Origin: Patescibacteria group bacterium
GTDB lineage: Bacteria > Patescibacteriota > Microgenomatia > UBA8517
NCBI GenBank assembly: GCA_022868165.1
Contig: JALHYA010000008.1
Span: 38,444 to 102,443, forward strand
Length of the DNA: 64,000 bases
Direction of reading: 5' to 3'
The position numbers and the translations under genes were made by a program. Below the pieces are notes generated by a model. That model ran no database searches. It had not been told where the DNA came from and worked only from the letters and a program-made list of their open reading frames with translations. This document shows positions 40,289 to 58,291 of this stretch, in pieces (position 1 is the first letter of the stretch; the number at the start of each line of letters is the position of its first letter).

Positions 40289-41550
40289 ATTAGTTTTGCT
40301 ACCCGCTCACCCAATTCTATCGCAAAATTTGAACCTCTATCCCATGGGTGAATTTGCTGCATATTGGCGATATAAAGACCTTTAATGGGACTTTCCAACG
40401 AAGGCATTTTTTGGGAATAATTAAGCGGAGCTATCGGCTGGGCAAAAAATGCTGGAAACTTGTATGCCTTCTTAATCCAAGACTTATCAAAGTCCGGACT
40501 TATCTTTTTGAGATGTGGAGTAAATTCCTCTATCAGCTGCTCTGTGGAATAATCAAAAAACGGATGAGTCGGCTCCAAATAATTACCGACATAAAGAAGT
40601 CTTTCTCCATCATAATATTTTGGGTCCATGAAATTCGTGTGCTCTACTACTGCCAAAAACGGCATTTTGTCGTTAACGTTAAGCCAGTAGGTCCCGTCTT
40701 TGAAAAATTGTTGCTTAAGTGAAAGGAGTAAATTAAATGCCGCTATTCCTTTTAAACTTAAGAGCTTCTTTTTGTATAAATCCGGTAATTGTGATGTCAG
40801 TTTAACGAAGTAAAGAAAAGGCAAGGTGCAAATAACCTTATCAAAGATATATTCCCCCTTTTTGGTCTTTACGGTCAAGTTTCCACCCTTTTTAATAATA
40901 TTTTCAACCCGGGTGTCGTAATATATTTTTGCCTTGTTTGTTTCTAGTATTTTTTTCTCGAGAGCGTCTACATATGCCTGAAAACCCCCTTCGGGGTAAA
41001 CCAAGGTTGCACTTCTTTTTTTAATTCTTGCCCAAAACCATGAGGCCGGAATATCTTTGGCATATTTACCGAATTTAGACCTAAAAAGAGGCTCCCATAG
41101 AACTTTCCATGATTTATTTCCCATCGTTTTTCTTAAAAATTTTTCCGCCTTAACTCCTTCAAGAGATTTCCACGAAGAAAAATACCTTAAATAGGCAATA
41201 ACAACACCGGTTCTAATCCTATCGATCACTGAAAGGTGGGGAAACTTCAAAAGTTTTATCGGAGAATCAATTTGATAAACTTTGCCTTTATAAAGGGTGG
41301 ATGTTTGGGCGCGCTCAAAAATAAGTTTAACTCCAATCCTTTCGGCGAGGCTGCGTATCGGCCAGTCTGACGTAAACCAATGGTGATAATGTTTTTCGAT
41401 TGTCCATATCCAATTCGACTCTTTAAAGCCAAGGGCCAGCCCTCCGGGTTTTGAGTCCGCCTCAAAGACGGTAACATCCATTCCCTTTTGGGTTAATTTC
41501 TCTGCGGCCGCAAGGCCTGTAAATCCTGCTCCGATTATTCCTACTTTCAT
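40285..41550 (-). CDS. NAD(P)/FAD-dependent oxidoreductase (amine-oxidase / protoporphyrinogen-oxidase-like fold)
   Basis: N-terminal KVGIIGAGFTGLAAAEKLTQKGMDVTVFEADSKPGG (dinucleotide-binding motif), YPEGGFQAYVDAL and a C-terminal GLYIAN...GSNFAIELGERVA, as in HemY/amine-oxidase family proteins. Confidence 0.6.
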   Translation of the reverse strand: MKVGIIGAGFTGLAAAEKLTQKGMDVTVFEADSKPGGLALGFKESNWIWTIEKHYHHWFTSDWPIRSLAERIGVKLIFERAQTSTLYKGKVYQIDSPIKLLKFPHLSVIDRIRTGVVIAYLRYFSSWKSLEGVKAEKFLRKTMGNKSWKVLWEPLFRSKFGKYAKDIPASWFWARIKKRSATLVYPEGGFQAYVDALEKKILETNKAKIYYDTRVENIIKKGGNLTVKTKKGEYIFDKVICTLPFLYFVKLTSQLPDLYKKKLLSLKGIAAFNLLLSLKQQFFKDGTYWLNVNDKMPFLAVVEHTNFMDPKYYDGERLLYVGNYLEPTHPFFDYSTEQLIEEFTPHLKKISPDFDKSWIKKAYKFPAFFAQPIAPLNYSQKMPSLESPIKGLYIANMQQIHPWDRGSNFAIELGERVAKLI

Positions 41551-41553
41551 TTT

Positions 41554-43209
41554 TTAGTTTGCGACTATCTCGAAATATATGTATCCGTTTTCACCATAAA
41601 TTTTCTTGACTATATTCGCCTCATTCGGAATTTCGTCGGGGGTTCCAATTATCATGCTATTCGGGTTTCCGGTCTGAATTTTAGCAAAATCGATGGGCTC
41701 AAAGTAATATTTGCCGAAATTTCGCACAGTTGAGAACCCGTACTTATCCCTTGGAATCAGGGTGTGCTCTTTTTGGAACTGCGCCGGAGGATACTTCATG
41801 GAATAACCGTCTACGCCGTAGAAAAGAAAAAGAATGTATGGCTGGTCGTATCGGTCGGTAATAAATACCTTTTGATATTTGAACTGATTTGCTTCGACAT
41901 ATGAGACCAATTCTTTTACTCCGTACTGTGAAGAAAACGGATATTCTTTTGCAATATGGACGTAATACATGTGTAAGTATCGCGTGAGAGACCACGCGAT
42001 TACAATGATCAATGACCAATGGCCAATGGCCAATAAAGATTTTCTTTGTCGTTTTAGCCAATCCAGAATTGTAATAAGACCGAAGGAAGAGATAATAACC
42101 AAAGGTATAACCATATTTTGTGCCCTCAAGGCAGAGGGAGACTGAAAGGTTAGGGCTGATGCCAATGGGGCGATAATCAACCAAAGCAACACTACTCCCC
42201 ATCCCTTGGAGTTTTTGACGACTGCCATAAGTCCGGCGGCCAAAAACAAAATATCGAAAAGATACATTTGCCCCGTTTCCGGTACTTTATTTCTTTGAAC
42301 GCTGTCTCCCGTCATAAACAAAAATTCTCCGTCGAAGTGTTTTGCCCAATTTCCCAAAAACGCCAGGCCATAATTAACCGCTTTGTTATGATAAACTTTT
42401 GCCACCAAGCTGGTAAAATCACCGTGTTCCCCTCTTTGCTCATTGATTCTAGACAGGGGTCCGGGATCTGCAAAAAGTCCAACTCCTGCTATCCTGGAAA
42501 GCACGGCTGTTCCCGTCAAATCCTTAGCCAAAGGCACCAACAAAAGAATTAAGAATAAGGAATTAAGAATTAAGAACTTAATATTCTGTTTCTTAAATAA
42601 TACCTTTCGATAAATAATTACCAATCCCAATCCTAAAAGCGGGGCAACTATCCTTGCTGCGTGGTAGGCATATAAAGATAGAGCAAATGCAATAACGGAG
42701 AGCGCAAAATATAGAATAACCCACTTCGTGGTAGAATTTTTTAGTCCCTTTAAGAAAAGCCAAACACCCAGAACTATTAGAAACGTTGCCGTATTTACTT
42801 CCCAGCCGCCCCGGGAAAACTGCAAGTGCCATGGACTAATTGCCAGAAAGAAACTTGATGCCAGCGCAAGCCTTTCGTCATCAAACAGCTCTTTTATCAA
42901 AAAGTACAAGATAACTACCGTCAAAACTCCTAAGGCTGCCCCGGGAATTCTAACCGACCAAACATTAAGACCGAAAAATTTTACAAACGGAAGAACCACG
43001 TAGAAGTAAAGTCCGGGTTTGTAATCGTTGAAAGATTGAAAATGAATGGGCCAAGAATTCCCGTGTTCATCCATTCCTGTTTGTATCAGGGAATAGACGT
43101 TATACCCTATTGCCGCCTCATCCGCATTAAGAGCCGGATAATCTCCAAGGCGGTAAAACCTTAAGATAAAGGCAAGCAAAATAATCGCCAAAAGAATAAA
43201 TTTCTTCAT
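41554..43209 (-). CDS. ArnT/PMT-family (GT83/GT39-like) polytopic glycosyltransferase, paralog 1
   Basis: LNADEAAIGYNVYSLIQTGMDEHGNSWPIHFQSFNDYKPGLYFY is the hallmark ArnT/PMT first periplasmic loop (DExxxxY...G.DE.G...P...F.D.KP). 551 aa with a conserved C-terminal domain. Confidence 0.8.
   Translation of the reverse strand: MKKFILLAIILLAFILRFYRLGDYPALNADEAAIGYNVYSLIQTGMDEHGNSWPIHFQSFNDYKPGLYFYVVLPFVKFFGLNVWSVRIPGAALGVLTVVILYFLIKELFDDERLALASSFFLAISPWHLQFSRGGWEVNTATFLIVLGVWLFLKGLKNSTTKWVILYFALSVIAFALSLYAYHAARIVAPLLGLGLVIIYRKVLFKKQNIKFLILNSLFLILLLVPLAKDLTGTAVLSRIAGVGLFADPGPLSRINEQRGEHGDFTSLVAKVYHNKAVNYGLAFLGNWAKHFDGEFLFMTGDSVQRNKVPETGQMYLFDILFLAAGLMAVVKNSKGWGVVLLWLIIAPLASALTFQSPSALRAQNMVIPLVIISSFGLITILDWLKRQRKSLLAIGHWSLIIVIAWSLTRYLHMYYVHIAKEYPFSSQYGVKELVSYVEANQFKYQKVFITDRYDQPYILFLFYGVDGYSMKYPPAQFQKEHTLIPRDKYGFSTVRNFGKYYFEPIDFAKIQTGNPNSMIIGTPDEIPNEANIVKKIYGENGYIYFEIVAN
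42010..42034. repeat. Near-tandem heptamer repeat (CAATGRC x3.5)
   Basis: aatgaccaatggccaatggccaat, encoding LAIGHWSLII within the ArnT-like paralog 1. Confidence 0.4.
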
Positions 43210-43233
43210 AACTTCATAAGTTTCAAGCTTTGC

Positions 43234-44895
43234 TTATTTCACCTCCACTATTCTAAAAGCAACTGTACCATCGAGATATCTTATTTCTTTTATTGGCTTT
43301 ACAAAGTTTGAATTATTGGCATCTTCGGACGGAATAATGATGGGATCAGCAACAACTAATGTTCCGTGCTCTTTTTTATTAATCGGCCAATCTATTGCCG
43401 TGAACTGAATATTATCAAGTTTGGTGTGATATCCTACGTCAGCTACGTTTTCGCTGGGGACAAGCTCAGCCGTTTTTTGATATTTGGCGGGGTCGTACCG
43501 CTGAAAAAACAAAAAATAAATATAGGGCTGTGCAAACGATTGCTGTACTTTTATGGTCTTATACTGCGACTGGATTGAGGTAACCGTTTGGACTATTTGT
43601 TTGTAGCCATAATCCCAATATTGAGAGTTATGCTTCAGTTGATGGACAAAATATTCTTCTAAGAAATAAGAATAGTTAATCAAATAAATAAAAACAAAAA
43701 GACCCAAGAGCCATTTTTTCCATTTGAAAAGTTGGGTTAACCCTACTGCCGACATTATTATCAGAGGAACAGCGAGAGCGAATGCGCGAACGGAGTGGAC
43801 CTCGTTGCGAGATAAAGCTGCCGGAAGGGGTGCCAGAACCATCCATAGGAATACAAACAGAACTTCTTTCTTTACTCCCATGCGAACAAGGCCAATAAAT
43901 CCGGCAATTAGAAGAATTAAATCCGCAAAAATAAATACGCCGACATAGGGAGCCGATTGCCTCGGATTGGACCAGTCGCCCTCAAAAAACAGGAACCTTC
44001 CTGAAAAATGATTAAACCACCTACCCAGAATTGCTCTCTTAAAATTTAGCGTTTCCGAATGGAAAATATAATAGGAAAGACTGCCGATTTTTTCGTTTCC
44101 TTCCGACAAAAAAGCCGTGAGAGATTCTGTTGTCCTCGGGTAGGAAAAAATACTAAAGACGTTAAGTCTGCCTGTTTCTCCTCGAAAAAGACTGATGAAA
44201 ATAGGAATTGCTATTACGATTCCTATGAGGACCGAAGCTCCAAGTATTTTCTTGGATGCAGAAAATATTTCGCGCCAATAAAGTAAAAGCAAAATTATCA
44301 CTACAATCCCTGTCGCCAGTTTTGCCCCTTGGTAAGCAAGAAGGGTTAGAGAAAAGAAAATCGAGGATAAAATCAAGAACTTTGGTTTTTCCAAAAATTT
44401 CAGGAAGAAGTAAATTCCTGCCAAAGTAAGGGTGAGGGCTATATTTGCTTCCCATGCCCCACGAGACAGATATAGAAACCAGGGGTTGATGGCCGCAAGG
44501 AATGCGGCACAGATGGCCAGTAACTTATTATTAGCAAATAGTTTTGAAACGATAAGATATATAAGGAAAACCGAAAAAATACCTGCAAGGGCGCTGGGAA
44601 ATCTGGTAGCAAACTCCGTCAAACCAAAAACGGCTACCGGAGGAACAGTTAAATAAACATAAAGTCCGGGTTTATAATCGCCGAAGGATTTGAAAATAAC
44701 CGGCAAAAACTTTCCGTATTCGTCTCTTCCGGTTTTTATTATCGAGAAAGCGTTATAGCCCAATGCCGCTTCGTCCGCGTCAAGCGAGGGAGGATTGGAA
44801 CCCAAGTTCCAAAAACGCAATATTGCGGCCAAGAGAAAAATTATAGTTAATGGCCAATGGCTAATGGCTAATTTTCTAATTTGCATATATTTCAA
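43234..44895 (-). CDS. ArnT/PMT-family polytopic glycosyltransferase, paralog 2
   Basis: LDADEAALGYNAFSIIKTGRDEYGKFLPVIFKSFGDYKPGLYVY. Confidence 0.8.
   Translation of the reverse strand: MKYMQIRKLAISHWPLTIIFLLAAILRFWNLGSNPPSLDADEAALGYNAFSIIKTGRDEYGKFLPVIFKSFGDYKPGLYVYLTVPPVAVFGLTEFATRFPSALAGIFSVFLIYLIVSKLFANNKLLAICAAFLAAINPWFLYLSRGAWEANIALTLTLAGIYFFLKFLEKPKFLILSSIFFSLTLLAYQGAKLATGIVVIILLLLYWREIFSASKKILGASVLIGIVIAIPIFISLFRGETGRLNVFSIFSYPRTTESLTAFLSEGNEKIGSLSYYIFHSETLNFKRAILGRWFNHFSGRFLFFEGDWSNPRQSAPYVGVFIFADLILLIAGFIGLVRMGVKKEVLFVFLWMVLAPLPAALSRNEVHSVRAFALAVPLIIMSAVGLTQLFKWKKWLLGLFVFIYLINYSYFLEEYFVHQLKHNSQYWDYGYKQIVQTVTSIQSQYKTIKVQQSFAQPYIYFLFFQRYDPAKYQKTAELVPSENVADVGYHTKLDNIQFTAIDWPINKKEHGTLVVADPIIIPSEDANNSNFVKPIKEIRYLDGTVAFRIVEVK
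44847..44873. repeat. Near-tandem heptamer repeat (TAATGGC x3)
   Basis: taatggccaatggctaatggctaat, encoding LAISHWPLT near the N-terminus of ArnT-like paralog 2. Confidence 0.4.
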
Positions 44896-46564
44896 AAGCA
44901 GGATTTCCGTCCAAAAACTTAATTGTTTCCAATTTCTTCCACTCCGAAGGGTAATTTCCGGGACCGGTTATCAATAAACATTTGGAAATTGTGCAATCCA
45001 CACTGCCTTTGCTTTCCAGAACAAATGTTTGTCCACTTTTGGGAATCTGCCAATCATTCACAAAATAAAACTTATCGAGCCTGTCTACCCAATACCAACC
45101 GGACTGGAAAAATCTTATCGCACTGGAGTCATTTTGATATTTGGCCGGGTCCCAGGGCCAATAGAAGAGGAAAAATTCGTGCGGCTCCCCGTATTTTTTG
45201 GTAACAATTATCTTGTCGTACTTGGAATAGTTTGCCTTGGTGTATTCGACAGCCTGTCTATATCCATACTGCCAGGACCACGAATAAGTTCGCGGATACT
45301 TTATAAAGTAGTTGATAAGATAGCTTTCGGCAAAAAAGTATATACCGATTAAGTAAAGCGCAACTAATATGCTCTTATATTTTCCGGCAGTTTTTTTGTT
45401 TAAATAATCAAAAACAAAAAATGCGCCAAGTGCCGATAAAATTTGTGGCAATGGCAGCATTGTCGAAATCCTGGTCACGGCAAAGTGCTCATTGGTAATA
45501 GCTCCCGGTATCGGACTTAATAGAAGCCAAACTAAAATAAATTGATAATCCGTAGAATCTTTCGCTCGTTTAAGAAGTATTAAGAGTCCCAGATAAAAAA
45601 ACGGCAAGTTGATTAAATAAGAAAGCCCAAAACCCGGAAGGCTATATTGATATTGAGTTCCCCCGTTTAGAAAAAGGAATTTTGGCGAGAAATATTCAAG
45701 ATAATTCTTTGTAAATTGAGAAGCGAAATAGGTTGGACGGTTATAAACAACTTTTGAAATTAAAACGGGGAGTTTTGAATTATTTCTATTCTCGATAATT
45801 TTATTTACCGCTGATTGATTTATTATAAAAAGCCACTGGCCTCTGGCTCTGGAGCTGGGTTCCAATATTATTGCGGCGGCCAACACAAGGAACGACAAAA
45901 CCACAGATATCAAAAGAGCAAACAAAAATCCACCCTTTTTAAATAACGACTTAAAATCTTGACGATAAATAATAACCGCGGCAACCAAAATCATCGGAGA
46001 GAAAATTCTTGTTGAATGATAAGCAAAGAGCGACAAAAAGAGCGAAACAAGCGACAAGGGCAAAAGATATTTGCTTTTATGCCAATTGAAAAATGCTGCC
46101 ATAGCTGTAACAAGAAGAAAAATGGAAACGTTTTGTTGAAGCACAATTCGTGAGGTAAACAACGTCCATGGCTCAACTGCAACCAAAAAAGATGCCAATA
46201 AAGCCAGCCCCCGCCGCTTCGTTAATCCTAACGCCAGGAAGTATGTTGCGACTACTGTTAATACGCCCAATATCACATGAGGAAAACGAATCGAAAATGC
46301 GTTTAGCCCAAAAACTACAATCGATGGAATCGTAATATATAAATTTAAAGGTAGAGGATAATCTCCATAAGCCCGAAAGTTTACTAAAGGAAATTTCTGT
46401 CCCCATTGATCGGCACCAGTCTTTAATATCGAATAAGCGTTATAACCGTGCGAAATCTCGTCCCAATTAAGCGCTGGTGGAAATTTATCCAGGTAAGCAA
46501 ATCTGAGAGCAAAGGCAAGAATAACAGTAAAAACAAATAAGGCCAAATATTTATATTTCGTCAT
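44876..46564 (-). CDS. ArnT/PMT-family polytopic glycosyltransferase, paralog 3
   Basis: LNWDEISHGYNAYSILKTGADQWGQKFPLVNFRAYGDYPLPLNLY. Confidence 0.75.
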   Translation of the reverse strand: MTKYKYLALFVFTVILAFALRFAYLDKFPPALNWDEISHGYNAYSILKTGADQWGQKFPLVNFRAYGDYPLPLNLYITIPSIVVFGLNAFSIRFPHVILGVLTVVATYFLALGLTKRRGLALLASFLVAVEPWTLFTSRIVLQQNVSIFLLVTAMAAFFNWHKSKYLLPLSLVSLFLSLFAYHSTRIFSPMILVAAVIIYRQDFKSLFKKGGFLFALLISVVLSFLVLAAAIILEPSSRARGQWLFIINQSAVNKIIENRNNSKLPVLISKVVYNRPTYFASQFTKNYLEYFSPKFLFLNGGTQYQYSLPGFGLSYLINLPFFYLGLLILLKRAKDSTDYQFILVWLLLSPIPGAITNEHFAVTRISTMLPLPQILSALGAFFVFDYLNKKTAGKYKSILVALYLIGIYFFAESYLINYFIKYPRTYSWSWQYGYRQAVEYTKANYSKYDKIIVTKKYGEPHEFFLFYWPWDPAKYQNDSSAIRFFQSGWYWVDRLDKFYFVNDWQIPKSGQTFVLESKGSVDCTISKCLLITGPGNYPSEWKKLETIKFLDGNPAFEIYAN

Positions 46565-48246
46565 TAATTAGTCTTTTTCTTTCCGTTAAAAACAATCGTT
46601 CCCAAAATAATTGCGGCAGATAAAATGCTTAATATATCCGAAGCTTTTCTTGGCGGAGTTTCTCTCCAAAAAACATTGATTTGGGATTTTCCACCCGAAA
46701 CCTCAATGCCTATATCTCCATGGGGCTCGAGAACTTTGGTTGATAAAGATATACCGTTAACCGTTACATACCATCCGGGAAAAGAGTAGGAATGAAACTC
46801 GACTGTTCCCTTTCCTTCTACTGTCGCAGAATAGCTCACCAAAGAATTTTCTCGAATATCGTCTATTTTTACGTCCTTCGAGGTAAACTTTGCGGAAGGA
46901 AGAGAGTCCGGCCTTTTTTGCACAGCCAGCGGTAGAAGAAGATAATCTTCGCTATAATTTTTGTATTCAGGAGAAAGCTCACTGGCCATACCCACGGTTG
47001 TATTTCTTGCAAAAAATCTTTTGAGAAAATAATTATCATCGGGATAGTAATAACCGCTTGGCTTGAAATAGGAAAAATTAATCGCGATTACCAAAGCCGA
47101 GAGGCCAATAGTCAGTTCTTTTCGATATTTTTTGACAGAATCAAAGAAAATTACGAAAGCGGAGGTTAGAAAAGTGGTAAGCATCAAAAGTCGCCAGGGA
47201 AACTGAATATATGTGGATAGAGAAAATACCTTCCATAAAAAGTTCGACCTTATATTCATTAGGAAGAGGGTGAACAAAACGCTTGCGGCAATAAAGATGT
47301 AAAAAAGTCTTTTTTCTTTAGACAATTTTTTAATCATAAATATACTCAAAATAATTAAGACCCAATTTATAATTCCTACCTGGAAGGAAATGTCGTCGTT
47401 GGGTCCAGGAAGCGAAGCTCCATAACGGAAAGGAGAATATATAAGCTGTTTGATAAAGGGAAAGTGATCGATGTAATTGAAAGGTGTTTGGGGATTGAGA
47501 AGGTTTTTTTCAAAAAATGCAGGGATTACGAAAAAGGCAGCACTGAAAAAGCCCAGTACCATTCCGATACCTGCCCTGACAAGACTAACAAAAGATTTTG
47601 AATTTATCGCTAGAACAATTGCATAAATTACGGCAATTGGTAAAAACATGATGGCCGAAAGATTGTGGGTAATGAGAAGGACTCCCGTAACCAATCCTAA
47701 AAAGCCTATCGACCTTAACTTTTTCTCTCCAAAAACTTTATTAATCGTCCAGAGAAGAAGTGGAAAAATGGTAAACGATAGTGCCTCTCCGATGGCACCG
47801 CGAACATACAAATCAACAGCACGGTATGGCGTAAAAATGTATAGAATACTTCCTAAAAGTGCAGCCCAAGTATCGGTGTGCTTCCTCAACCACATATACA
47901 TAAAAATTCCGGAAAGAGGAATCGAAACCAGAAAAACCATCTTTAAAGAAAAAATCAAGGAGTGACTGAAAAAGTAAACCAACGACCCGAGATAAAACGG
48001 AAAAACATAATAGAAGTTAAAAAGCGGGTATCCATACTCATAGCTCATATCGGGAACCCATCGTGGGGGAATTTGGCCTGATGAAATCGCCCTTATCATT
48101 TCGTAGAGGTCTGCTATGTGCGGCTCGTCGGAGAAATGAAAAAAACCGCTTCTTAAAAGAGGGATAGAGGCCAAAAGGCTGGCCACAAGAATAGCGACTA
48201 TAAAAAACCACTTACTTCTTGTTAATTTTGTCCAATATTGCTTCAT
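46564..48246 (-). CDS. Polytopic membrane protein, second GT-C-like paralog family (member A)
   Basis: 560 aa. The N-terminal loop SGFFHFSDEPHIADLYEMIRAISSGQIPPRWVPDMSYEYGYPLFNFYYVFPFY is shared with the next gene. About 12 TM helices and a C-terminal beta-rich soluble domain. Confidence 0.4.
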   Translation of the reverse strand: MKQYWTKLTRSKWFFIVAILVASLLASIPLLRSGFFHFSDEPHIADLYEMIRAISSGQIPPRWVPDMSYEYGYPLFNFYYVFPFYLGSLVYFFSHSLIFSLKMVFLVSIPLSGIFMYMWLRKHTDTWAALLGSILYIFTPYRAVDLYVRGAIGEALSFTIFPLLLWTINKVFGEKKLRSIGFLGLVTGVLLITHNLSAIMFLPIAVIYAIVLAINSKSFVSLVRAGIGMVLGFFSAAFFVIPAFFEKNLLNPQTPFNYIDHFPFIKQLIYSPFRYGASLPGPNDDISFQVGIINWVLIILSIFMIKKLSKEKRLFYIFIAASVLFTLFLMNIRSNFLWKVFSLSTYIQFPWRLLMLTTFLTSAFVIFFDSVKKYRKELTIGLSALVIAINFSYFKPSGYYYPDDNYFLKRFFARNTTVGMASELSPEYKNYSEDYLLLPLAVQKRPDSLPSAKFTSKDVKIDDIRENSLVSYSATVEGKGTVEFHSYSFPGWYVTVNGISLSTKVLEPHGDIGIEVSGGKSQINVFWRETPPRKASDILSILSAAIILGTIVFNGKKKTN

Positions 48247-49876
48247 ACGAAAAAAGGGAAATTACCGATAATGCTCCAATCAAGCTGATAATATCTGCCA
48301 AGCTCCTATACCATGGCTTAATTAGTCTTGCTTCTATTTTTGCATCGCCTGCAGGAACTTTAAAGCTAACCAGTCCCAACTGGCCTGTGGCCTGCGCTTT
48401 AACACCGCCACCATTCACTATAACTTCCCAATTTGGGAAATCAAAAGCAGGCAAAGAAACATATCCACCACCGCTTCCCGTTTTTACGTCAACCTTGTAC
48501 CAATTTGTACCTCTTTCGAAACTTACAGTATTAACTACCCCTTCGAGAACAATCAACGAATTGGGCACTTTGGAGGTAGGAGCCTTTGAAGCGCTTTTGG
48601 GTAAATAGTCATAAATACTCGCCGTAATTTGCCTCTCCAGGTTATCTCCCGAAAGTTTTTGGGCATCGGTAATATCGAACCAATCTTTGGGCCTGTAAAA
48701 ATTTCCGTAAAGAGCAAAAGTAGCTATCAGCAAGATTAGGACCAAAACCCAATAAATTTTCCCTTTAAAGGCTGATGCAAAAATTGCACCAAGGACCGAA
48801 GAGCAGAAGGTGGCCAACAGCATAAACCTCCATGGAAACTGAAGGAATTCCATAAAAGGTAGCGCTTTCCAAATAAAAGTAGAGCGTTCATGAGACAAAA
48901 AAGCGGCCAAAATAAAAAAGGCGACAAAAAATATTGAAGTGGTTTTGATTTCTTTCTTTTTGGTAATCAGTCCGTAGATGAATCCCAGTACAGCCGCAAA
49001 TGTACCGATTGGACCGAGACCCAAAAAAGCACTGTCATTCGGACCGGCAATTGATGGTCCATAGCCCCATCTTGTGGAAATAAAGATTTGTTTAAGGTTA
49101 ATAAAATGGGCCAAATAGTTAAAATAGCCGGACGTCAAAGTTTCAAGATGTACCAAATTTCTCTCGATAAAAAGTGGCAGCCAGAAAAAAGCGGATATTG
49201 CCAACCCGATGGCACCTGAAATTATGACTCGACCCAAGGTTTTCTTATCAATTTTTAGTTGGATAATTCTTAGAATTATCCAGCCGGCAACCAAGGGAAT
49301 GGTCATTAAAACGGTCAGGTTGTGGCAAATCATATAAATCCCCACGCTAATGGTAAAAATCCCCATCGAAATTTTGTTTTTGTTTTTAATAAGGTTTTCA
49401 AAACCCCAAAGAACCAGAGGCAAAGCCATAAGACCCCACGCCTCACCCATTCCCCCTCTAACAAAAATCTCGGCTGCTCTAAATGGAGCATACAAATATA
49501 GTATCGTTCCAAATAAAGATGCCTCTTTTGAAAAAAGATTTCTTAGAAAAAGGTAAAAGAAGATTGCCGAAAGGATTACGCTCAAAATAAATCCTGCCTT
49601 GACGGAATCGATAAAACCCAAGCCTCCAAGGTGAACAAGCTCCATTGCATAGTAAGGAAGGGGCGCATAATAGATATATAGCGGGTAACCATATCCGTAT
49701 CCCAAATCGGGCACCCATCTGCAAGGAATCTGGCCATCTTTAATACAACTATCCATATCTTTAAGTCGAATAATCTGCATATCGTCATACATCGAGAAGA
49801 ATCCCGGTCGAACCAAACTTTTTACTACGGGGATAATCAAAATCGTCAAAATTAAAATCCAGAGAATCTTTTTCAT
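48212..49876 (-). CDS. Polytopic membrane protein, second GT-C-like paralog family (member B)
   Basis: PGFFSMYDDMQIIRLKDMDSCIKDGQIPCRWVPDLGYGYGYPLYIYYAPLPYY, the same loop motif as member A. Start is likely the internal M (MKKILWILIL) at about 49876. Confidence 0.4.
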   Translation of the reverse strand: MKKILWILILTILIIPVVKSLVRPGFFSMYDDMQIIRLKDMDSCIKDGQIPCRWVPDLGYGYGYPLYIYYAPLPYYAMELVHLGGLGFIDSVKAGFILSVILSAIFFYLFLRNLFSKEASLFGTILYLYAPFRAAEIFVRGGMGEAWGLMALPLVLWGFENLIKNKNKISMGIFTISVGIYMICHNLTVLMTIPLVAGWIILRIIQLKIDKKTLGRVIISGAIGLAISAFFWLPLFIERNLVHLETLTSGYFNYLAHFINLKQIFISTRWGYGPSIAGPNDSAFLGLGPIGTFAAVLGFIYGLITKKKEIKTTSIFFVAFFILAAFLSHERSTFIWKALPFMEFLQFPWRFMLLATFCSSVLGAIFASAFKGKIYWVLVLILLIATFALYGNFYRPKDWFDITDAQKLSGDNLERQITASIYDYLPKSASKAPTSKVPNSLIVLEGVVNTVSFERGTNWYKVDVKTGSGGGYVSLPAFDFPNWEVIVNGGGVKAQATGQLGLVSFKVPAGDAKIEARLIKPWYRSLADIISLIGALSVISLFSYEAILDKINKK

Positions 49877-49877
49877 A

Positions 49878-51560
49878 CTATTTTGCAGTAAGGACTTGGG
49901 AAGACGGATCAACAATCAAAATTGCCGGCTTTCCGTCGGGATAATAGACCGTATGGAGAGCAATTACCTTTCCGGGAAATTCCTCAGGTTTTCCAATAAA
50001 TAGAATTCCCGGTTTATCTTTATTATTATCATAATACAAACTCCCAAATCTATACTTACCTAGCCAGTATCCTTCCAGTCCATCTAAATAAAGAAAACCT
50101 TCTTGCTCATATCTCAACCATGTTTTCGACGCCAGTTGAACTTCGTGAGGGTCCCATTTTTCATAAAACTGTACCCAAATATTCGAAGCCCCCAGGCCCC
50201 TGCCTACATAAATCATCTCATAATTGCCCGCAATTTTGTTTACGTAAATAAAGGCTTCCTTCTCTCCGTATTGCATTGATTCGGCCGAGCCGTAAGGGGT
50301 ATGGTATAAATAGTCTTCAGTAAACACCAGCAGAGAGCCGAAGATTACTATTCCCAGAATTGAAAAGGTTGCAATTCTCCATGCTCCACGCAATTTTTCT
50401 TTGACGAAAGAGTAAAAGATGAAAAATCCGTAAGCTGAAAAAATTTCGATTGCCGGAAGCATTACTACAGCTCTATTTGCCGCATATCCTGGTCCCTTCG
50501 TCATTGCGGCGGCAAAGGGAGAAAGAACAATCCATAAAAATAAAAATCCAAGCAGCAAAGAATCCTTTTTTCGAATCAGGGCCACAAGCGCCAACACGAT
50601 AAATATTATTTCGAAGAAGTACATCACTCCCCTCCCAGGAATCATTCCATAGGACCACTCTCCTGCTCCCTGGAAGAATAAGAAATATGGAGAAAGATAG
50701 GAAAAATAATTCTGTAAAAATAAGTGTTCCACATATGCAGGTTTGTTTGAGAACACTCTGGCAACGCTGTCTGGAAGACCCAAAAGTACAGCTTCATATC
50801 TGCGCGTGCTTACCGCAGCCCATTTATCTGTGGGGTTGGTAATTAAGATATCGGATCCTCTTTTTCCAGCACCGAAAAAGAATGTCGAAAAAGCAGCCAC
50901 AAAGAAAAAAAGAAACACCAATATTGAAAGCCACTGACGTTTAAGCGAAAATTTTCTATAGAAAAAGATTGATAAAAGAAAAATGATGACTGGAGTAAAA
51001 AGCCGCGCACCATGATAAGAAAAGAGGTTAAGTCCAAACGATAGAGAGGCCAGAATCATCCATTTTGGTTTTTCAAGTCCCTTCAAAAAAGCCCAGATGC
51101 CCAGGGGAATAAAAAATGTACTTAGGTTTACTCCCAAACCTACTCGAGAAAGAGATATGTTCCAAGGAGAGATTGCCAAAAGCAAGGCGGACATAAGCGC
51201 AATTAATTCATTTTCCTTGTGTTCGCTGAACAATTTTTTGACCATAAGATATGTTGCAAGAACTGCCAAGGTTCCAAAGAGCGCACTCGGAAATCTTGTA
51301 GAGAATTCATTCAGTCCAAATACTGCAACTGAAGGTATCGTCAAATACCCATATAAAGGGAGTTTAAAATCTCCTAATGAGCGAAAAAGCAAAGGCCAAC
51401 TTACTCCCCATTGGTCGTGGCCGGTCTTTAACAGCGAGTAGGCATCATATCCTAAAGAAGCCTCGTCTTGGGTAAATCCGACAGGATGCAAACTTATATT
51501 CCATAAACACAAGAAAAAGGCCAGGATAATAATTAAACCCAAGACAAATTTGCGAATCAT
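49878..51560 (-). CDS. ArnT/PMT-family polytopic glycosyltransferase, paralog 4
   Basis: GFTQDEASLGYDAYSLLKTGHDQWGVSWPLLFRSLGDFKLPLYGY. Confidence 0.8.
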   Translation of the reverse strand: MIRKFVLGLIIILAFFLCLWNISLHPVGFTQDEASLGYDAYSLLKTGHDQWGVSWPLLFRSLGDFKLPLYGYLTIPSVAVFGLNEFSTRFPSALFGTLAVLATYLMVKKLFSEHKENELIALMSALLLAISPWNISLSRVGLGVNLSTFFIPLGIWAFLKGLEKPKWMILASLSFGLNLFSYHGARLFTPVIIFLLSIFFYRKFSLKRQWLSILVFLFFFVAAFSTFFFGAGKRGSDILITNPTDKWAAVSTRRYEAVLLGLPDSVARVFSNKPAYVEHLFLQNYFSYLSPYFLFFQGAGEWSYGMIPGRGVMYFFEIIFIVLALVALIRKKDSLLLGFLFLWIVLSPFAAAMTKGPGYAANRAVVMLPAIEIFSAYGFFIFYSFVKEKLRGAWRIATFSILGIVIFGSLLVFTEDYLYHTPYGSAESMQYGEKEAFIYVNKIAGNYEMIYVGRGLGASNIWVQFYEKWDPHEVQLASKTWLRYEQEGFLYLDGLEGYWLGKYRFGSLYYDNNKDKPGILFIGKPEEFPGKVIALHTVYYPDGKPAILIVDPSSQVLTAK

Positions 51561-51580
51561 AAACCTTATCTAAGATGATA

Positions 51581-53245
51581 TCAGTTCTTGGTGTAAACGT
51601 AAAAAATAGGAGTTCCGTCTGGGCCTCTGGATGTAAATATTAAGTTCAACTTTCCTGTATTAAAAATTTCGGGGTTGGTTACATCCTTCACGGCCGAAGC
51701 CACTATCAAATCTCCATGTTCCCCCAAATTTTCAACCGGTTTTTTGATATCTCCAAAATAATACTTACTGCCAAGCTTGAATCCGTTAAAGCTCGGGGCA
51801 ATGTTATCTGAAAAGGTGTCCCTTTCGAATTGTTTTTGGAAAAGTTTCATATCATATCCGTACCAAAAGAGAAACCTTTGAAGCATCGGTTCATGAGTAC
51901 TGTTTAGATATACCCTGTTATAACTTCCGTCGATGCCTTTAACATATTGGAGGGTTTCTTTAAAACCGTATTGCCATTGGCGCCACGTTTCATTGGGCCA
52001 AACAACAAAATAGCGATTCATAAACCTGGAAACCTCAAAAACCATAACCAGAGCGACCAAAATCACAATAATATTTCTGACTAACGGTCTTTTTAATTTT
52101 GTTAGAAAGTCAAAGCCAGCGGCGGAGAAAAAAATCAGCGGGGGAAGCATCAAAATAAGTCTTGATGCGTGCGTTCCTCCACCCTGAGTAAGGCTGGAGG
52201 GAATGGGGGCCAGTATAAGCCAAAGTGGAAAAATCCAGTTTAGCTTCTTGGAGGGTTTGCTTGTTGCAGCAAGGACAATTAGCACGACTCCGATTAGCAC
52301 AAGAAAAAAATCGAAATGGTACATCTCTCCAAATTCGTCTATGGAGCCGCGGGGATTGGGATCACCTTGAGCAAAGAGAAAATTGGAAGAAAAAGATTGC
52401 ATGTAATTACTGAAAACCAGGGAAGTTATAACTGTAGCCTTATTGTAAAAAAGTCTTCCAAGTATTCCATGTTCAAATACTCTTTCGTTTTCTACCCTGG
52501 CTACTATTTCAGCGGCGGGAGCAACGCTAATGTCCGATATCCTTCTGATGGTCTTTCCTTTTACTGTCCAAAGCAGGTAAGGTCCCAAAAACAAGATGGT
52601 GATTAGCGCCACCAACATGAGCTTTTTGATGCCGTATGAAAATACCTCCCGCCGAAAAATTATCAAAAGTCCCAAGACAAATAGGGGCACAAAAAGCGAA
52701 GAGACTGCATAAGAGTAAATGCTCAAGGAGAAAAGTATTGCGGACAGAATAAGATATTTGTAATTTTTTAGACCCTTAAGAAAAAGGTAGGTACCAAAAA
52801 TTATAAAGGGCAAAAGGATTCCCGCGTCGTTGGCTTCCCTGGAAAAATTGAAGTGCCAAGGAGAAAAAGTCATAAACAGTGAAGCGATTATTCCTAATTT
52901 CTTCCCGACAAGTTCCTTTACGAGAAGATAAAATGCAAGAATCGTCAAAAATCCCATTAAAACGGCCGGGCCTCTTACCCCTGTCTCGTTAAGACCGAAA
53001 AGTTTGATAAACGGAACATCCATGTAAAGCTGCATCGGTAGGCGGTATTCCGCAAAGCTATGGAAAAGAACAGGAAAAGAAGTTCCGAGATAATCTTTAC
53101 CGGTTGTCAAAATCGAATTCGCCTGAAGACCGACATCTAGTTCGTCACCGAAAAGCGAAATTGGAACACGGTTTATTTGCCAAATCCGAAAGTACGCACC
53201 GAGAAGAAAAGCAGCTATAACAATAATTGGAATTATTTTTTTCAT
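51581..53245 (-). CDS. ArnT/PMT-family polytopic glycosyltransferase, paralog 5 (divergent)
   Basis: LFGDELDVGLQANSILTTGKDYLGTSFPVLFHSFAEYRLPMQLY is a divergent version of the same loop. It also has the shared C-terminal domain. Start is likely the M (MKKIIPIIV) at about 53245. Confidence 0.65.
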   Translation of the reverse strand: MKKIIPIIVIAAFLLGAYFRIWQINRVPISLFGDELDVGLQANSILTTGKDYLGTSFPVLFHSFAEYRLPMQLYMDVPFIKLFGLNETGVRGPAVLMGFLTILAFYLLVKELVGKKLGIIASLFMTFSPWHFNFSREANDAGILLPFIIFGTYLFLKGLKNYKYLILSAILFSLSIYSYAVSSLFVPLFVLGLLIIFRREVFSYGIKKLMLVALITILFLGPYLLWTVKGKTIRRISDISVAPAAEIVARVENERVFEHGILGRLFYNKATVITSLVFSNYMQSFSSNFLFAQGDPNPRGSIDEFGEMYHFDFFLVLIGVVLIVLAATSKPSKKLNWIFPLWLILAPIPSSLTQGGGTHASRLILMLPPLIFFSAAGFDFLTKLKRPLVRNIIVILVALVMVFEVSRFMNRYFVVWPNETWRQWQYGFKETLQYVKGIDGSYNRVYLNSTHEPMLQRFLFWYGYDMKLFQKQFERDTFSDNIAPSFNGFKLGSKYYFGDIKKPVENLGEHGDLIVASAVKDVTNPEIFNTGKLNLIFTSRGPDGTPIFYVYTKN

Positions 53246-55056
53246 GTCCAGTTGGTCAACCATCCGGATAGCATAACAAGCATCCAAATTGAACCGGCAT
53301 TGTTTTCCTTTCTTTCCTGATGGGCATTCCAGATTTTTTCAATCTTGCTTCGGTCAATATAATCATACAATTTTGGATTCCTAATTGCCTCATAGGCGAA
53401 ATCTTTGAGTTCTCCCCTTATCCATTTTGCAACAGGGATGCCAAAACCCTTTTTGGGCCTTTTGGCTACTTCAGGCAGCTTCCTTTTAAGAAGATTTCTT
53501 AAAAGAATTTTTGTTTCCAGTAGATTTACATGGTTGCGAGGATAGGAATATGCATAATCGATAACGTCGTTGTCCAAATATGGGACTCTTACCTCCAAAG
53601 AGTTATACATCGAAGCCCTGTCGGTCTTAACCAAAAAATCATCTCTCAAATAGGTGTAATAATCTGTAATTTGCGCCTGACGAACGGGGTTGACACTATC
53701 GAGCTTCGGCATCACCTTACTTAGCCAAGAAAATTCCGGTTTCTTATAGAGAATGTTTTCGCCTCTAAAAAAGGTACGCATCATATATAAGTGTCTGTCT
53801 ACGGGCTCTTTACGAACTCCCTTTAAAACTATTTTGGCCAACTCCTTGGGTGGATAATTTTTGTCCGATTCCGGAAGCATATTTAAAAGAAAAATAGATG
53901 AATCCAAAACGAATTTGGGCAAGTATTTTAGCTTCTCGGCAATAATTTGCGCCTGATAGGTAGGATATCCTCCGAAAAGTTCGTCTCCTCCGTCACCGCT
54001 AAGGGCTACGGTCACATATTTTCGTGCAAGCTTGCTGACTTTGTAGGTGGGAAAAAAGGAAGCATCGGCCAGGGGCTCATCAAGAAGTTTGGTAAGAGAT
54101 TTATATAAATCGGGAATTTCTTTTACTTCAAAAGTTTCACTGTAATGTTTGGTTCCCAACTTTTTCGCAACAGTCTTTGCATACTGCGATTCGTCAAAGC
54201 TCTGTTCCTTAAAACCTATGGAAAACGATTTCAAACTTTTTATTTCAGAAATAAAACAGGAAAGAAGGCTTGAATCAAGACCACCACTAAGAAGCACGCC
54301 CACCGGGACATCCGCATGAAGTTGACCAACAACGGCATCTCTTAACAGCTCTTTCAACGGTTTTTCCGACATGGGTTTTGAAGGATTGATTTCAAAAAAT
54401 TTCCTTATTGTTAATCCCCTTTTTGAAAAAGTGAGCGAATGTCCGGGAAGAAGTTTAACTATACCCTCAAACATTGATTTTTCCGATGGAATATAGCCGA
54501 AATAGCAATAAAGACTAAGCGCATCTTTATCTACTTTTCTATTAAATCCCGGGACTTTCAAAATAGTTTTGACTTCCGAACCGAAGACAAGCTTGTTCCC
54601 CGACCGGGAAAAATATAGAGGTTTTATTCCCGCCCTGTCCCTTGCGATAAATAACTCTTTCTTCTTGTCATCCCAAATTGCGAAAGCAAACATCCCGTTT
54701 AAATATTTGGCCATGTTGTAGCCGTATTTTTCGTAAAGATGAAGTAAAACTTCGGTATCGCTTTCGGTCTTAAATTCGTGTCCGTCCCTTTTGAGTTCTT
54801 GAACAAGTTCCCGATAGTTATAAATTTCCCCGTTATAGATTACGGTTAAGCTTTCGTCCTCATTTTTGATTGGCTGGTCACCCGTAACCAAGTCGATAAT
54901 ACTTAAACGTCGCACTCCGAGACCTGCTTTTTTGTCGCTACTTACAAAAATGCCCGAAGAATCGGGTCCCCGATAAACAATCTCCCCTATCATGAAGGAA
55001 ATTACCGAGGGGTTAACGCCCGAAGAAAAATCAACGTATCCCGCTATCCCGCACAT
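53242..55056 (-). CDS. Asparagine synthetase B-like glutamine amidotransferase (class II GATase + PP-loop synthetase)
   Basis: N-terminal MCGIAG (catalytic Cys2) and the PP-loop SGGLDSS. 604 aa. Confidence 0.85.
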   Translation of the reverse strand: MCGIAGYVDFSSGVNPSVISFMIGEIVYRGPDSSGIFVSSDKKAGLGVRRLSIIDLVTGDQPIKNEDESLTVIYNGEIYNYRELVQELKRDGHEFKTESDTEVLLHLYEKYGYNMAKYLNGMFAFAIWDDKKKELFIARDRAGIKPLYFSRSGNKLVFGSEVKTILKVPGFNRKVDKDALSLYCYFGYIPSEKSMFEGIVKLLPGHSLTFSKRGLTIRKFFEINPSKPMSEKPLKELLRDAVVGQLHADVPVGVLLSGGLDSSLLSCFISEIKSLKSFSIGFKEQSFDESQYAKTVAKKLGTKHYSETFEVKEIPDLYKSLTKLLDEPLADASFFPTYKVSKLARKYVTVALSGDGGDELFGGYPTYQAQIIAEKLKYLPKFVLDSSIFLLNMLPESDKNYPPKELAKIVLKGVRKEPVDRHLYMMRTFFRGENILYKKPEFSWLSKVMPKLDSVNPVRQAQITDYYTYLRDDFLVKTDRASMYNSLEVRVPYLDNDVIDYAYSYPRNHVNLLETKILLRNLLKRKLPEVAKRPKKGFGIPVAKWIRGELKDFAYEAIRNPKLYDYIDRSKIEKIWNAHQERKENNAGSIWMLVMLSGWLTNWT

Positions 55057-56012
55057 TAAAACCTTTCAATTTCTTTAATCTCATAGATTGGTTTTCCCTG
55101 CGATTCAAAATATGTACGAACCTGAAGTTCCGCCAAAAGGCCCATCAAAATGAATTGTGTGCCTAAAAGAACCAAAAAAACGGCTATAAGAAAAAGCGGA
55201 TCCGTATGAACAAAAATTCCCAAGAAAATTTTTCTGTATGCGACAGCAAGAAGAGAAATTCCTCCAAAAAAAAGGCTGCCCAAACCTAAACTTCCGAAAA
55301 CATATGAAGGCTTTGTCCCGTAAGAACTTAAAAACTTCACCGTAATTAAATCGATTATGGTTTTTATAATTCTGCTATAGCCATATTTTGATTTGCCCTT
55401 GAGTCTTGGTCTATGGTTAACAACTACTTCGGCAACCTTCGCCCCTTTTAGGTAGACCAGAACTGGAAGAATCCGATGCAATTCCCCATATAGCTGCAGA
55501 TCCTCCAGGAATTCTTTTTTAACAACCCTTGCCGAACAGCCTACGTCATGGAAGGGGTAGTTAAAAAGAACTTGGATCAATTTATTGGCACTCACTGAGA
55601 AAATTCTCCTTACGGTTTTATCTTTCCTTTGCTTTCTCCAACCAAAGGCGGCATCATAACCTTCGTTGATTTTTTCCAAGAATTTAGGTAGAGCTCCAGG
55701 GTCATTTTGCAAATCCGCATCCAAAAACGAAACAAGGTTGCCAGAAGATTTATCGATTCCTGCCGAAATTGCTGCGGTCTGCCCGAAATTTTTCCTGAAA
55801 GAAACTATTTTAATCCTTATATCTCCATCTTTAGTCTTTTTAACCGCATTTTCCAAAACAGAGGCTGAAGAGTCGGTGCTTCCGTCATTTACATAAACAA
55901 TCTCCGTTTCCATGCCGAGCTTCCTTAAAACACCAATCAACTCTTTGTGGAGTATGGGCAAGTTGTTTTCCTCATTAAAAAAAGGAACAACGACCGAAAG
56001 AGAATTGTTCAT
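55056..56012 (-). CDS. Membrane-anchored GT2 polyprenyl-phosphate glycosyltransferase (ArnC/GtrB-like)
   Basis: LSVVVPFFNEENNLPILHKEL...EIVYVNDGSTDSS and a DAD motif, plus two C-terminal TM helices (...LGLGSLFFGGISLLAVAY...LIAVFLVLLGTQFILMGLLAE) as in ArnC/GtrB. Confidence 0.75.
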   Translation of the reverse strand: MNNSLSVVVPFFNEENNLPILHKELIGVLRKLGMETEIVYVNDGSTDSSASVLENAVKKTKDGDIRIKIVSFRKNFGQTAAISAGIDKSSGNLVSFLDADLQNDPGALPKFLEKINEGYDAAFGWRKQRKDKTVRRIFSVSANKLIQVLFNYPFHDVGCSARVVKKEFLEDLQLYGELHRILPVLVYLKGAKVAEVVVNHRPRLKGKSKYGYSRIIKTIIDLITVKFLSSYGTKPSYVFGSLGLGSLFFGGISLLAVAYRKIFLGIFVHTDPLFLIAVFLVLLGTQFILMGLLAELQVRTYFESQGKPIYEIKEIERF

Positions 56013-56057
56013 TTATCTAAAGGAAATTATATATCATTTGGGAGGCTAATACCTGTT

Positions 56058-57497
56058 TTAAGAAACTCGATACCAGGCGTTAACATCGAGAAAATAAATT
56101 TCTTTTATTGCCATTGCGCACAGAAACGCCAATATTGCCAATACAACCAATTGATAAACTCTTTTCATCCAAATCTTATCAATAAAAATCGTTCCGGCAA
56201 ACACGGACAGCAAAAAAACCAAAGCGACTCTAAGCCACGGAACAAACTTGCTGAAACCTTCAATCCCATAAAGCCTATGCAAACTAGTACCGAATGGAAA
56301 AAGGGAAATTCCAAGAAAGGCAAAGAAATTAGGTTCTCGAAGTACTTTCTCTATAAAATATGCTAATTCGATAATTATTAAAGAAAGGAAGGGAAATCTG
56401 TACCAACCAAAACTCTCGCTTCCGAAAATTATAAAAACAATCAAATAAGAAAACACAGAAATTGTCAGAATTGTCGTCCCTCTTCTCTTTTTCCATTCTG
56501 CAATTGAGACAATAAAAGTTGCTACCCAGGATGCTAGAATCCAGCCGTCGCTAAGGAATTTTGTTGCGGTGATTTTAGACTGCGTAACGGCTGAAAGAAA
56601 AACCTCCGCTCCGGAACCGTAAAGGCGTCCTGCTTGGGCAAAAAATACATTTTTAAAAACTTCCCAATCGTAATATGCCCCATAAGCGAAGAATGCCACA
56701 AGTCCCGAAATTCCTATTATAAAAACAAGCGTCAGATTACGAAGTTTTTCTCTCTTCGAGTCATAGGCCAAGATAATCAAAAGCAAACTGATAAGAACAG
56801 CAATTCCGGAAAGTTTGAAGAGGATAGCTACCGCAGAAATAATTGCCGCCAATATAAGAAATGCTCGTTTTTTCTTCTTTAGGTATAAATCCGCCAGAAT
56901 TAGTGCTCCAAGAAAAAGAGGGATATAACCGTTTTCTGCAAGAACAAGACGTGAAGAAATTACTGCAGTGGGGATAATAGAGTATAGAAGTGCCGAAAGA
57001 AGACCAACCCATTTATTATAAAGTCTGGTGGCCAAAACGAAAATGAGAAAAGTTGTTAATATAGCGATCCTAAGCATTGGTCTTCGTATAATACCCACGC
57101 CTGTTTGGTAGAACTGCCGGGCCCCCTTTAGATAGGAATAACCCCCAATAATAAGTGCGAAGCCGGGTGGATGATCAAACCATGGTTTGGTCATTCGAAA
57201 TGCAAAATGCTCAGGATCGTTTGTGTCCAAATTATCGACATTGATTTTTTCGTACCAGATATTTTGGCCTGCATCTACTATTCCGGTCCAGCCAATCGGG
57301 ATTCCTTGTTGGATTAAGCTCAAGCCCACCCAAGCAAAATCATATTCATCTGCCGTTTCGCCCGGATGAGGAACAGTGTCGTAATTATAAGAACGTAATT
57401 TGTTCCCCAATAAAAGAATCGCAAAGAGGGCCAGAATAATAATTATTTCTTTTTTGGCTATCCGCCAAATATTTTTTGCCATTTTTGCGAAAGCCAA
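56058..57497 (-). CDS. Polytopic membrane protein, distant PMT_2/GT-C-like
   Basis: The loop HPGETADEYDFAWVGLSLIQQGIPIGW has a DE...motif like the ArnT loop. About 12 TM helices. Confidence 0.4.
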   Translation of the reverse strand: MAFAKMAKNIWRIAKKEIIIILALFAILLLGNKLRSYNYDTVPHPGETADEYDFAWVGLSLIQQGIPIGWTGIVDAGQNIWYEKINVDNLDTNDPEHFAFRMTKPWFDHPPGFALIIGGYSYLKGARQFYQTGVGIIRRPMLRIAILTTFLIFVLATRLYNKWVGLLSALLYSIIPTAVISSRLVLAENGYIPLFLGALILADLYLKKKKRAFLILAAIISAVAILFKLSGIAVLISLLLIILAYDSKREKLRNLTLVFIIGISGLVAFFAYGAYYDWEVFKNVFFAQAGRLYGSGAEVFLSAVTQSKITATKFLSDGWILASWVATFIVSIAEWKKRRGTTILTISVFSYLIVFIIFGSESFGWYRFPFLSLIIIELAYFIEKVLREPNFFAFLGISLFPFGTSLHRLYGIEGFSKFVPWLRVALVFLLSVFAGTIFIDKIWMKRVYQLVVLAILAFLCAMAIKEIYFLDVNAWYRVS

Positions 57498-58279
57498 ATA
57501 ATTATAAATAATATATAATATTTGATTGGTCCATGATAAATCTTACTGCCTGGAATTAACCTTCTCCACTGGTTTTTTCTATCTGCTACTTTCTTCCCGC
57601 TTGCTCCTAAGTAATGAACAATCTCGGCATCCGGCAAAAAATAGACTTTAAGCCCTGACTTCCAAACCCTTCTGCAATAGTCGAAATCTTCAAGATAAAA
57701 AAAGTATCTCTCGTCTAAAAGTCCAACTTTTTTTAGTCCTAGAGGAGTAATTAAAAACGCGGTCGCAACCGCTATGTCGACCGTTCGCGGGTTCGTTCCC
57801 TCAGGAGAATATTTCTCATAGGCTCCTTTTTGCCCCAGCCAATATTCTTTTATCGCACCGCAAATTGCAGGGAAGTTGTAACAGGAAGCCTGGATACTTC
57901 CGTCGGGATTAAGAAGTTTGGCCCCGATAACACCAGCATCTTGGGTTTTCTCGGCGAAATGCATAAGCGTTCCTAACGCTTTTGCCTTAACCTTAGTATC
58001 TGAGTTAAGAAGAAGTATATATTTACCTTTCGCAACTTTTATTCCCTGATTATTTGCCCTGGCAAATCCCAAGTTCTGACGATTCTCCAGAAGTTTAAAA
58101 TTAGAAAGAGTCGATTGATATTCTCGAAGCATACTAACGGAATCGTCTTTCGAATCGTTGTCGACAACCAGGATTTCGTAATTCACTCCCGAGGAATTTT
58201 TCAGGATAGACTCTATACACTCACGGGTCAGTTTTTCTGTGTTAAAACTGACGATTATTATTGATAATTCCGGTTTCAT
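57458..58279 (-). CDS. Family 2 glycosyltransferase
   Basis: LSIIIVSFNTEKLTRECIESILKNS...EILVVDNDSKDDS. Confidence 0.75.
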   Translation of the reverse strand: MKPELSIIIVSFNTEKLTRECIESILKNSSGVNYEILVVDNDSKDDSVSMLREYQSTLSNFKLLENRQNLGFARANNQGIKVAKGKYILLLNSDTKVKAKALGTLMHFAEKTQDAGVIGAKLLNPDGSIQASCYNFPAICGAIKEYWLGQKGAYEKYSPEGTNPRTVDIAVATAFLITPLGLKKVGLLDERYFFYLEDFDYCRRVWKSGLKVYFLPDAEIVHYLGASGKKVADRKNQWRRLIPGSKIYHGPIKYYILFIIIWLSQKWQKIFGG

Positions 58280-58291
58280 TCTTGAGACGTA

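Follow-up and report, generated by a model that had tools for sequence, protein, structure and literature searches.

Here we describe an array of seven tightly packed genes, each encoding a polytopic protein of 551 to 568 amino acids, on the minus strand (positions 41554 to 53287) of a 64-kb stretch of DNA, referred to here as the window, from a tiny-genome groundwater-type bacterium of the Microgenomates within the Candidate Phyla Radiation (CPR). Judged by Pfam and BLASTP searches and by AlphaFold models, the encoded proteins are glycosyltransferases of the GT-C fold and belong to two families, one with five PMT-like paralogues (G1, G2, G3, G6, and G7) and one with two members (G4 and G5), as the initial annotation of this DNA had proposed. 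It seems somewhat probable, from sequence, models, and analogy with known systems, that the array is an assembly or decoration line that works outside the cytoplasm, draws on polyprenyl-phosphate-sugars, and serves a conserved envelope glycoconjugate.

Nine open reading frames (ORFs), all on the minus strand, fill positions 41554 to 56012. The first array gene is G7 (51581 to 53287; likely start, ATG at position 53245), and it is followed by G6 (49878 to 51560), G5 (48212 to 49915; likely start, ATG at position 49876), G4 (46564 to 48246), G3 (44876 to 46564), G2 (43234 to 44895), and G1 (41554 to 43209), which is both the last and the most conserved gene of the array. Since the genes are transcribed toward lower coordinates, those for an ArnC-like GT2 enzyme and an AsnB-type amidotransferase, initially placed downstream, both lie upstream of the array. 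The overlaps of 1 to 35 bp that had been noted between array genes are present at the G4/G3 (1 nt) and G5/G4 (35 nt) junctions, but the G7/G6 and G2/G1 junctions are gaps of 20 and 24 nt, respectively. The AsnB stop codon overlaps the ATG of G7 as ATGA, provided that the ATG at position 53245 is the true G7 start. This arrangement supports the view that the seven genes are packed as for one operon. Promoter- and terminator-like sites in a scan of positions 40000 to 58500 were not above those in shuffled sequence, and hence no internal operon boundaries were derived; tRNA and Rfam scans of the whole window gave no matches.

The five PMT-like proteins are full-length mutual paralogues with 28 to 34% identity (BLASTP E values of 1e-49 to 6e-88), with G7 being 28 to 32% identical to G1, G2, G3, and G6. 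All five exceed the gathering score of the Pfam family PMT, PMT_2, or both. G1 (50.8 bits) and G3 (32.9 bits) match PMT (PF02366), with G1 being assigned to both families; G2 (40.8 bits) and G6 (47 bits) match PMT_2 only, and G7 matches PMT_2 with 62 bits, while its PMT score of 19.2 is under the cut-off of 22.7. The first-loop signature described in the initial annotation is real, as it aligns in the five paralogues, and its conserved Asp and Glu residues are kept in orthologues. Numbered as in G1, residues D30, E31, G35, S40, T44, G45, D47, G50, P54, F57, and Y70 do not vary among the five paralogues. Among 303 orthologues, the motif residues are 92 to 98% conserved, and the D30-E31 pair, which follows transmembrane (TM) helix 1 in all five paralogues, is 98% conserved overall, at least 99% conserved in four orthogroups, and 85% conserved in that of G7. 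In four of the five orthogroups of the same 303 sequences, conservation is at least 93% for D30/E31, D47, R87, R133, Y182, R239, and R362; in the G7 orthogroup (20 sequences), it is 85% for D30, E31, and D47 and 100% for R87, R133, Y182, R239, and R362.

The AlphaFold model of G1 has approximately 11 TM helices, and a crude hydropathy scan of the array proteins gave 6 to 11 hydrophobic segments. With an 11-helix topology, the conserved residues would all be located in external loops or at the outer ends of helices. The model also contains a soluble α/β domain (residues 428 to 551, mostly with a pLDDT above 80), and this C-terminal domain aligns across all five paralogues. Only nine conserved positions in the external loops are orthogroup specific, and the sequences therefore give little direct sign of distinct acceptor pockets. 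Each family is represented by one AF2 model (G1 and G4, respectively); both models are confident, and their structural matches are GT-C enzymes only, including Pmt4, STT3, ArnT, and AftA/AftD. Taken together, the predicted fold, the outer-face arginines, and the neighboring GT2 enzymes resembling undecaprenyl-phosphate-sugar synthases suggest that the donor would be a polyprenyl-phosphate-sugar used on the noncytoplasmic face of the membrane.

G4 and G5 share 31% identity and have no BLAST relation to the five PMT-like paralogues. Both match PF10131 (PTPS_related), with 51.1 and 32.2 bits, respectively, against a cut-off of 26.4, and their homologues at times also match YfhO (PF09586). An aspartate after TM1, D40, is invariant in 45 sequences of this family. 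The G4 model (pLDDT of 92) yielded Foldseek matches to STT3, AglB, AftA, AftD, Emb, and ArnT, and it shows an extracytoplasmic β-sandwich (residues 460 to 527), with a weak likeness to a GH30 side domain, together with a C-terminal TM anchor. Such a CBM-like β-sandwich and a likeness to the polymer-elongating enzymes AftA and AftD are features of both G4 and G5, the latter of which occupies a variable slot in the array.

Despite these family matches, the sequences argue that the array proteins are not bona fide PMT or ArnT enzymes. They differ from the PMTs of family GT39 (yeast Pmt1/2/4 and Mycobacterium tuberculosis PMT) in the absence of a PMT_4TMC match, the Rx2Y motif, and a MIR domain and in the presence of the extra C-terminal soluble domain. 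PMT_4TMC (PF16192) gave no match at an E value of ≤0.01 in any of the five paralogues; the G1 model does contain a four-helix block, which is followed by the extra domain at residues 428 to 551. In the M. tuberculosis enzyme, an Rx2(Y/F) motif in external loop 5 is essential (R441 and Y444; PMC12331936). R362 is invariant in the five paralogues, but position +3 is N, A, S, V, or I, and the motif is thus absent. The profile of the five paralogues had a sole, marginal match among PDB sequences, ArnT 5EZM (E value of 0.012, 17.6 bits, residues 62 to 228), and NCBI labels family members "ArnT family." The paralogues share with ArnT (GT83) a soluble C-terminal domain after the TM bundle; however, ArnT has 13 TM helices, compared with 11 in the G1 model. 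In light of the failed PMT sequence tests and the marginal ArnT similarity, protein O-mannosylation, which the initial annotation had mentioned, is one possibility and not the indicated function. More broadly, the five paralogues could be protein O-glycosyltransferases, each modifying Ser/Thr residues in its own class of secreted or surface proteins, such as pilins, S-layer proteins, or adhesins emerging from the membrane, on the model of actinobacterial PMT, Pseudomonas TfpW, and streptococcal Pgf. We consider this unlikely: in addition to the missing PMT_4TMC match and the lack of an aromatic residue three positions after R362, ArnT and STT3 score level with Pmt4 as structural matches, neither the conserved cluster nor the DNA next to it encodes a candidate acceptor protein, and the invariable linkage of the array to a cytoplasmic GT2, a cytoplasmic GT4, and a polytopic membrane protein (U376; see below) suits glycan assembly better.

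The array is not particular to this genome. An orthologue of G1 is found in at least 545 species-level genomes, all of Microgenomates-type CPR bacteria, and in a neighborhood survey of 80 related loci with a 10-kb flank, all those whose flank was long enough had G1 at the end of an array encoded on a single strand. The conserved order is G7-G6-(variable slot)-G3-G2-G1, followed by genes for a GT2 enzyme, a GT4 enzyme, and a 376-amino-acid membrane protein. At least four PMT-family genes are present in 65 of the 80 loci, and the other 15 either are truncated upstream or still have four GT-C genes. In a tree of 16 genomes, each of the five paralogues falls into a monophyletic orthogroup of its own, with 30 to 69% identity between orthologues, compared with 28 to 34% between paralogues; the ranges are 34 to 54% for G6, whose orthologues are found at the same array position, 38 to 68% for G3, and 35 to 63% for G2. 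The copy-number comparison across relatives that had been recommended thus recovers the same ordered array lineage-wide, and both the orthogroups and the gene order agree with the proposal that the paralogues are diversified rather than redundant. The "expansion" noted initially is, in contrast, an ancient Microgenomates-wide trait that has been in public genomes since 2015 under generic annotations; a recent lineage-specific expansion was rejected based on orthogroup monophyly and conserved order. Given this monophyly and the retained outer-face Asp-Glu pair and arginines, the five paralogues are ancient, nonredundant, and probably all active. A search of the CPR, Patescibacteria, and Microgenomates literature, with subscription-journal papers mostly outside its scope so that absence is no proof, found no description of the array, in agreement with the initial view that it had not been described.

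The junctions of the related arrays are likewise tight (median gap of −4 nt; 78% are ≤30 nt) and often overlapping, and together with the fixed gene order across the lineage, this could indicate that the paralogues are subunits of one or a few hetero-oligomeric enzymes whose stoichiometry is ensured by translational coupling. The GT-C paralogue pairs Pmt1-Pmt2 and EmbA-EmbB form heterodimers, and their structures are also among the fold matches. Nevertheless, the putative catalytic and phosphate-binding residues are all retained in each of the five orthogroups, and hence none looks like a noncatalytic subunit. Complex formation would also be compatible with separate activities, and we regard a purely subunit role as quite improbable.

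Directly upstream of the array is the gene for the AsnB-type glutamine amidotransferase (53242 to 55056; 604 amino acids; Asn_synthase, 292 bits, plus GATase_7), which scores above the cut-off for TIGR01536 (473 bits). It adjoins the array in 1 of the 80 related loci, the 10-kb flank rarely extending upstream of the array, and is accessory to the array in this genome; a role as an integral general component was rejected, as it adjoins the array in just one other locus. The next gene (55056 to 56012) encodes a 318-amino-acid GT2 enzyme (Glycos_transf_2, 104 bits) with two to three hydrophobic segments at residues 238 to 296, consistent with C-terminal TM helices, and is a candidate ArnC/CsbB/GtrB-type polyprenyl-phosphate-sugar synthase. 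Its best NCBIfam matches, ArnC (179 bits; cut-off of 529) and PgfS (128 bits), are both under the equivalog cut-offs, and it is not visibly conserved at this position in other genomes, where the 10-kb flank rarely extends so far. A further PMT_2-family GT-C protein, X479 (56058 to 57497, minus strand; PMT_2, 40.8 bits), with approximately 10 predicted TM segments, is encoded directly upstream of this GT2 enzyme and aligns to the G1-family profile with an hhalign probability of 91.5%.

The juxtaposition of an ArnC-like GT2 enzyme and an amidotransferase, the PDB match to ArnT, the NCBI label, and the ArnT-like soluble domain are what would be expected of ArnT-type lipid modifiers that add charged sugars, for example, AsnB-linked amidated uronic acids, to membrane glycolipids or lipid anchors and so tune surface charge. 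There is a precedent in Rhizobium, whose neighboring ArnT-like paralogues RgtA/B/C transfer GalA from a polyprenyl-phosphate donor to different LPS positions. This reading appears highly improbable to us, since AsnB is not conserved with the array, the ArnC score is far from the equivalog cut-off, and none of the Ara4N pathway genes for ArnA/B/D was found among the window ORFs scanned, in contrast to ArnT systems with their ArnC-like donor synthase. Moreover, Patescibacteria are generally considered to be without LPS, and lipid A synthesis is not known from the host lineage.

Downstream of G1, the array is followed by a gene for a FAD-dependent oxidoreductase of the PRK07233 family (40285 to 41550, minus strand; phytoene-desaturase/HpnE-like; Amino_oxidase, 101 bits; NF005560, 426 bits), which sits between the array and the conserved GT2 gene and is found in the same place in 14 related loci and also in loci L085 and L086. 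The conserved module itself, also on the minus strand, consists of genes for a 265-amino-acid GT2 enzyme (39491 to 40288; Glycos_transf_2, 71 bits), which nearly all related loci have after their G1 orthologue; a 342-amino-acid GT4 enzyme in a conserved position (38466 to 39494; Glycos_transf_1, 104 bits); and U376 (37339 to 38469), a conserved membrane protein of 376 amino acids with 8 TM helices and no Pfam match. U376 has an invariant N-F-D-G-x-H-Y motif, the residues of which are kept in 58 orthologues, and a weak match to the NCBIfam "cell surface glycopolymer formation protein" (E value of 6e-6). Comparison with both array families by hhalign was negative (probability of ≤1.3%); U376 is possibly a further GT-C or polymerase-like enzyme, its GT-C nature being a guess from the NFDGxHY motif. 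Next on the same strand (36342 to 37342) is a pair of genes for a 219-amino-acid GT2 enzyme, with PpgS (124 bits) and then AglJ (110 bits) as its best NCBIfam matches, and a 114-amino-acid DUF2304 protein (55 bits). This GacI/GacJ- or PpgS/Rv3632-type pair is a putative polyprenyl-phosphate-HexNAc synthase; GacJ is a DUF2304 protein that stimulates GacI, and Rv3632 does likewise for PpgS (bioRxiv 10.1101/180810).

Outside positions 41554 to 56012, the window encodes at least four more GT-C-type proteins, including the PMT_2-family protein Y481 (34108 to 35553, minus strand; PMT_2, 43 bits), which aligns to the G1 family with an hhalign probability of 95.9% and which related loci also encode downstream of the array. 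In the same hhalign comparison with the array families, W557 and T512 were unsupported and S642 was weakly PF10131-like (51%). A Wzm/Wzt exporter with a Wzt_C domain, methyltransferases, FdtA/DegT, and a carbamoyltransferase are also encoded in the window. The lipid-linked donor supply that had been postulated finds support, at the level of sequence, in three candidate polyprenyl-phosphate-sugar synthases encoded in the window: the ArnC/CsbB-like enzyme, the GacI/PpgS-like enzyme with its DUF2304 partner, and an AglJ-like enzyme with C-terminal TM helices. No GtrA or Polysacc_synt Pfam match, as expected for a GtrA- or Wzx-type flippase, was found among the window ORFs scanned. A Polysacc_synt gene is present downstream in two related loci (L001 and L003).

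In the assembly or decoration line that we favor, membrane-associated GT2 enzymes would load single sugars from nucleotide-sugars onto polyprenyl phosphate at the cytoplasmic face, the candidates being the 318-amino-acid ArnC/CsbB-like protein encoded directly upstream of the array and, on its downstream side, the GacI/GacJ-like pair, and the lipid-linked sugars would then be flipped across the membrane. Each of the five PMT/ArnT-like paralogues and the two PF10131 enzymes would carry out transfer at the outer face, at a different position or stage of one glycoconjugate, relying on the conserved Asp-Glu pair in external loop 1 and on a ring of arginines at the outer face, while the invariably linked GT2-GT4-U376 module may provide the primer or backbone. 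The acceptor would most likely be a glycan, that is, a secondary cell wall polymer, a lipoglycan, or a surface protein glycan; lipid A is not the acceptor, and bare protein probably is not either. As the same ordered array is found throughout the lineage, it probably builds a conserved surface sugar coat.

Complete Microgenomates genomes are only about 0.8 to 0.9 Mb in size (819 to 917 kb), yet five to seven large GT-C enzymes, encoded in a fixed order across the lineage, take up approximately 9 to 12 kb; here, at least 11 GT-C-type proteins are encoded in a 64-kb stretch, nearly all of which is concerned with glycan synthesis. Retention of the array at such a cost in reduced genomes argues that its product is central to the envelope and perhaps to host attachment. 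A more specific idea, possible but doubtful, is that the array and the GT2-GT4-U376 module are a Microgenomates-specific envelope glycopolymer machinery, with mostly extracellular assembly from polyprenyl-phosphate-sugars and clade-specific decoration by the slot enzymes. If so, its product would be a functional analogue of mycobacterial arabinogalactan/lipoarabinomannan and a lineage-defining surface structure of these ultrasmall, probably episymbiotic bacteria, and the variable slot between G6 and G3 could supply decorations that differ between clades and matter for host or phage recognition. The cluster offers concrete, widely conserved targets for glycomics, cryo-ET correlation, and heterologous biochemistry, and the five ancient paralogues offer a natural system for studying how GT-C acceptor specificity diversifies.

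Two groups of known systems resemble the array. The first consists of the arabinan and mannan GT-C enzymes of mycobacteria and corynebacteria. The embC-embA-embB genes form a tandem paralogue operon, and the Emb and AftA to AftD proteins are likewise tandem, ancient, and nonredundant GT-C enzymes that use polyprenyl-phosphate-sugar donors to make a single envelope polymer on the outside of the membrane and have extracytoplasmic carbohydrate-binding-type domains, as do G4 and G5. However, Emb and AftD are approximately 1,000 to 1,400 amino acids long, with large C-terminal CBMs, there are three Emb paralogues rather than five plus two, no sequence relation to the array is detectable beyond the GT-C fold, and DPA pathway genes (UbiA-type PRTase and DprE1/2) were not seen here. 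The second group is the multicomponent transmembrane glycosylation systems of Gram-positive bacteria, in which a CsbB/GtrB-type GT-A enzyme, a GtrA/Wzx flippase, and a PMT_2/YfhO-type GT-C enzyme act on teichoic acids and wall polysaccharides (PMC8035078), as exemplified by CsbB-GtcA-YfhO, GacI/J/K/L, CsdAB/CD/EF, and GtsABC (PMC8035078; bioRxiv 10.1101/180810). The same classes are encoded here, namely, a GT2 enzyme with C-terminal TM helices, a GacI/GacJ-like pair, and GT-C enzymes of the PMT_2 and YfhO/PF10131 types; the acidic first-loop motif is common to both sets of GT-C enzymes, and the predicted chemistry, extracytoplasmic transfer from a C55-P-monosaccharide to a wall polymer, is alike. 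In contrast to the Gram-positive systems, no flippase was recognized among the window ORFs scanned, and whereas those systems pair one GT-A enzyme with one GT-C enzyme in scattered loci, the array described here brings five to seven GT-C enzymes together in one collinear array that is conserved across a class-level lineage beside a fixed GT2-GT4-membrane protein module.

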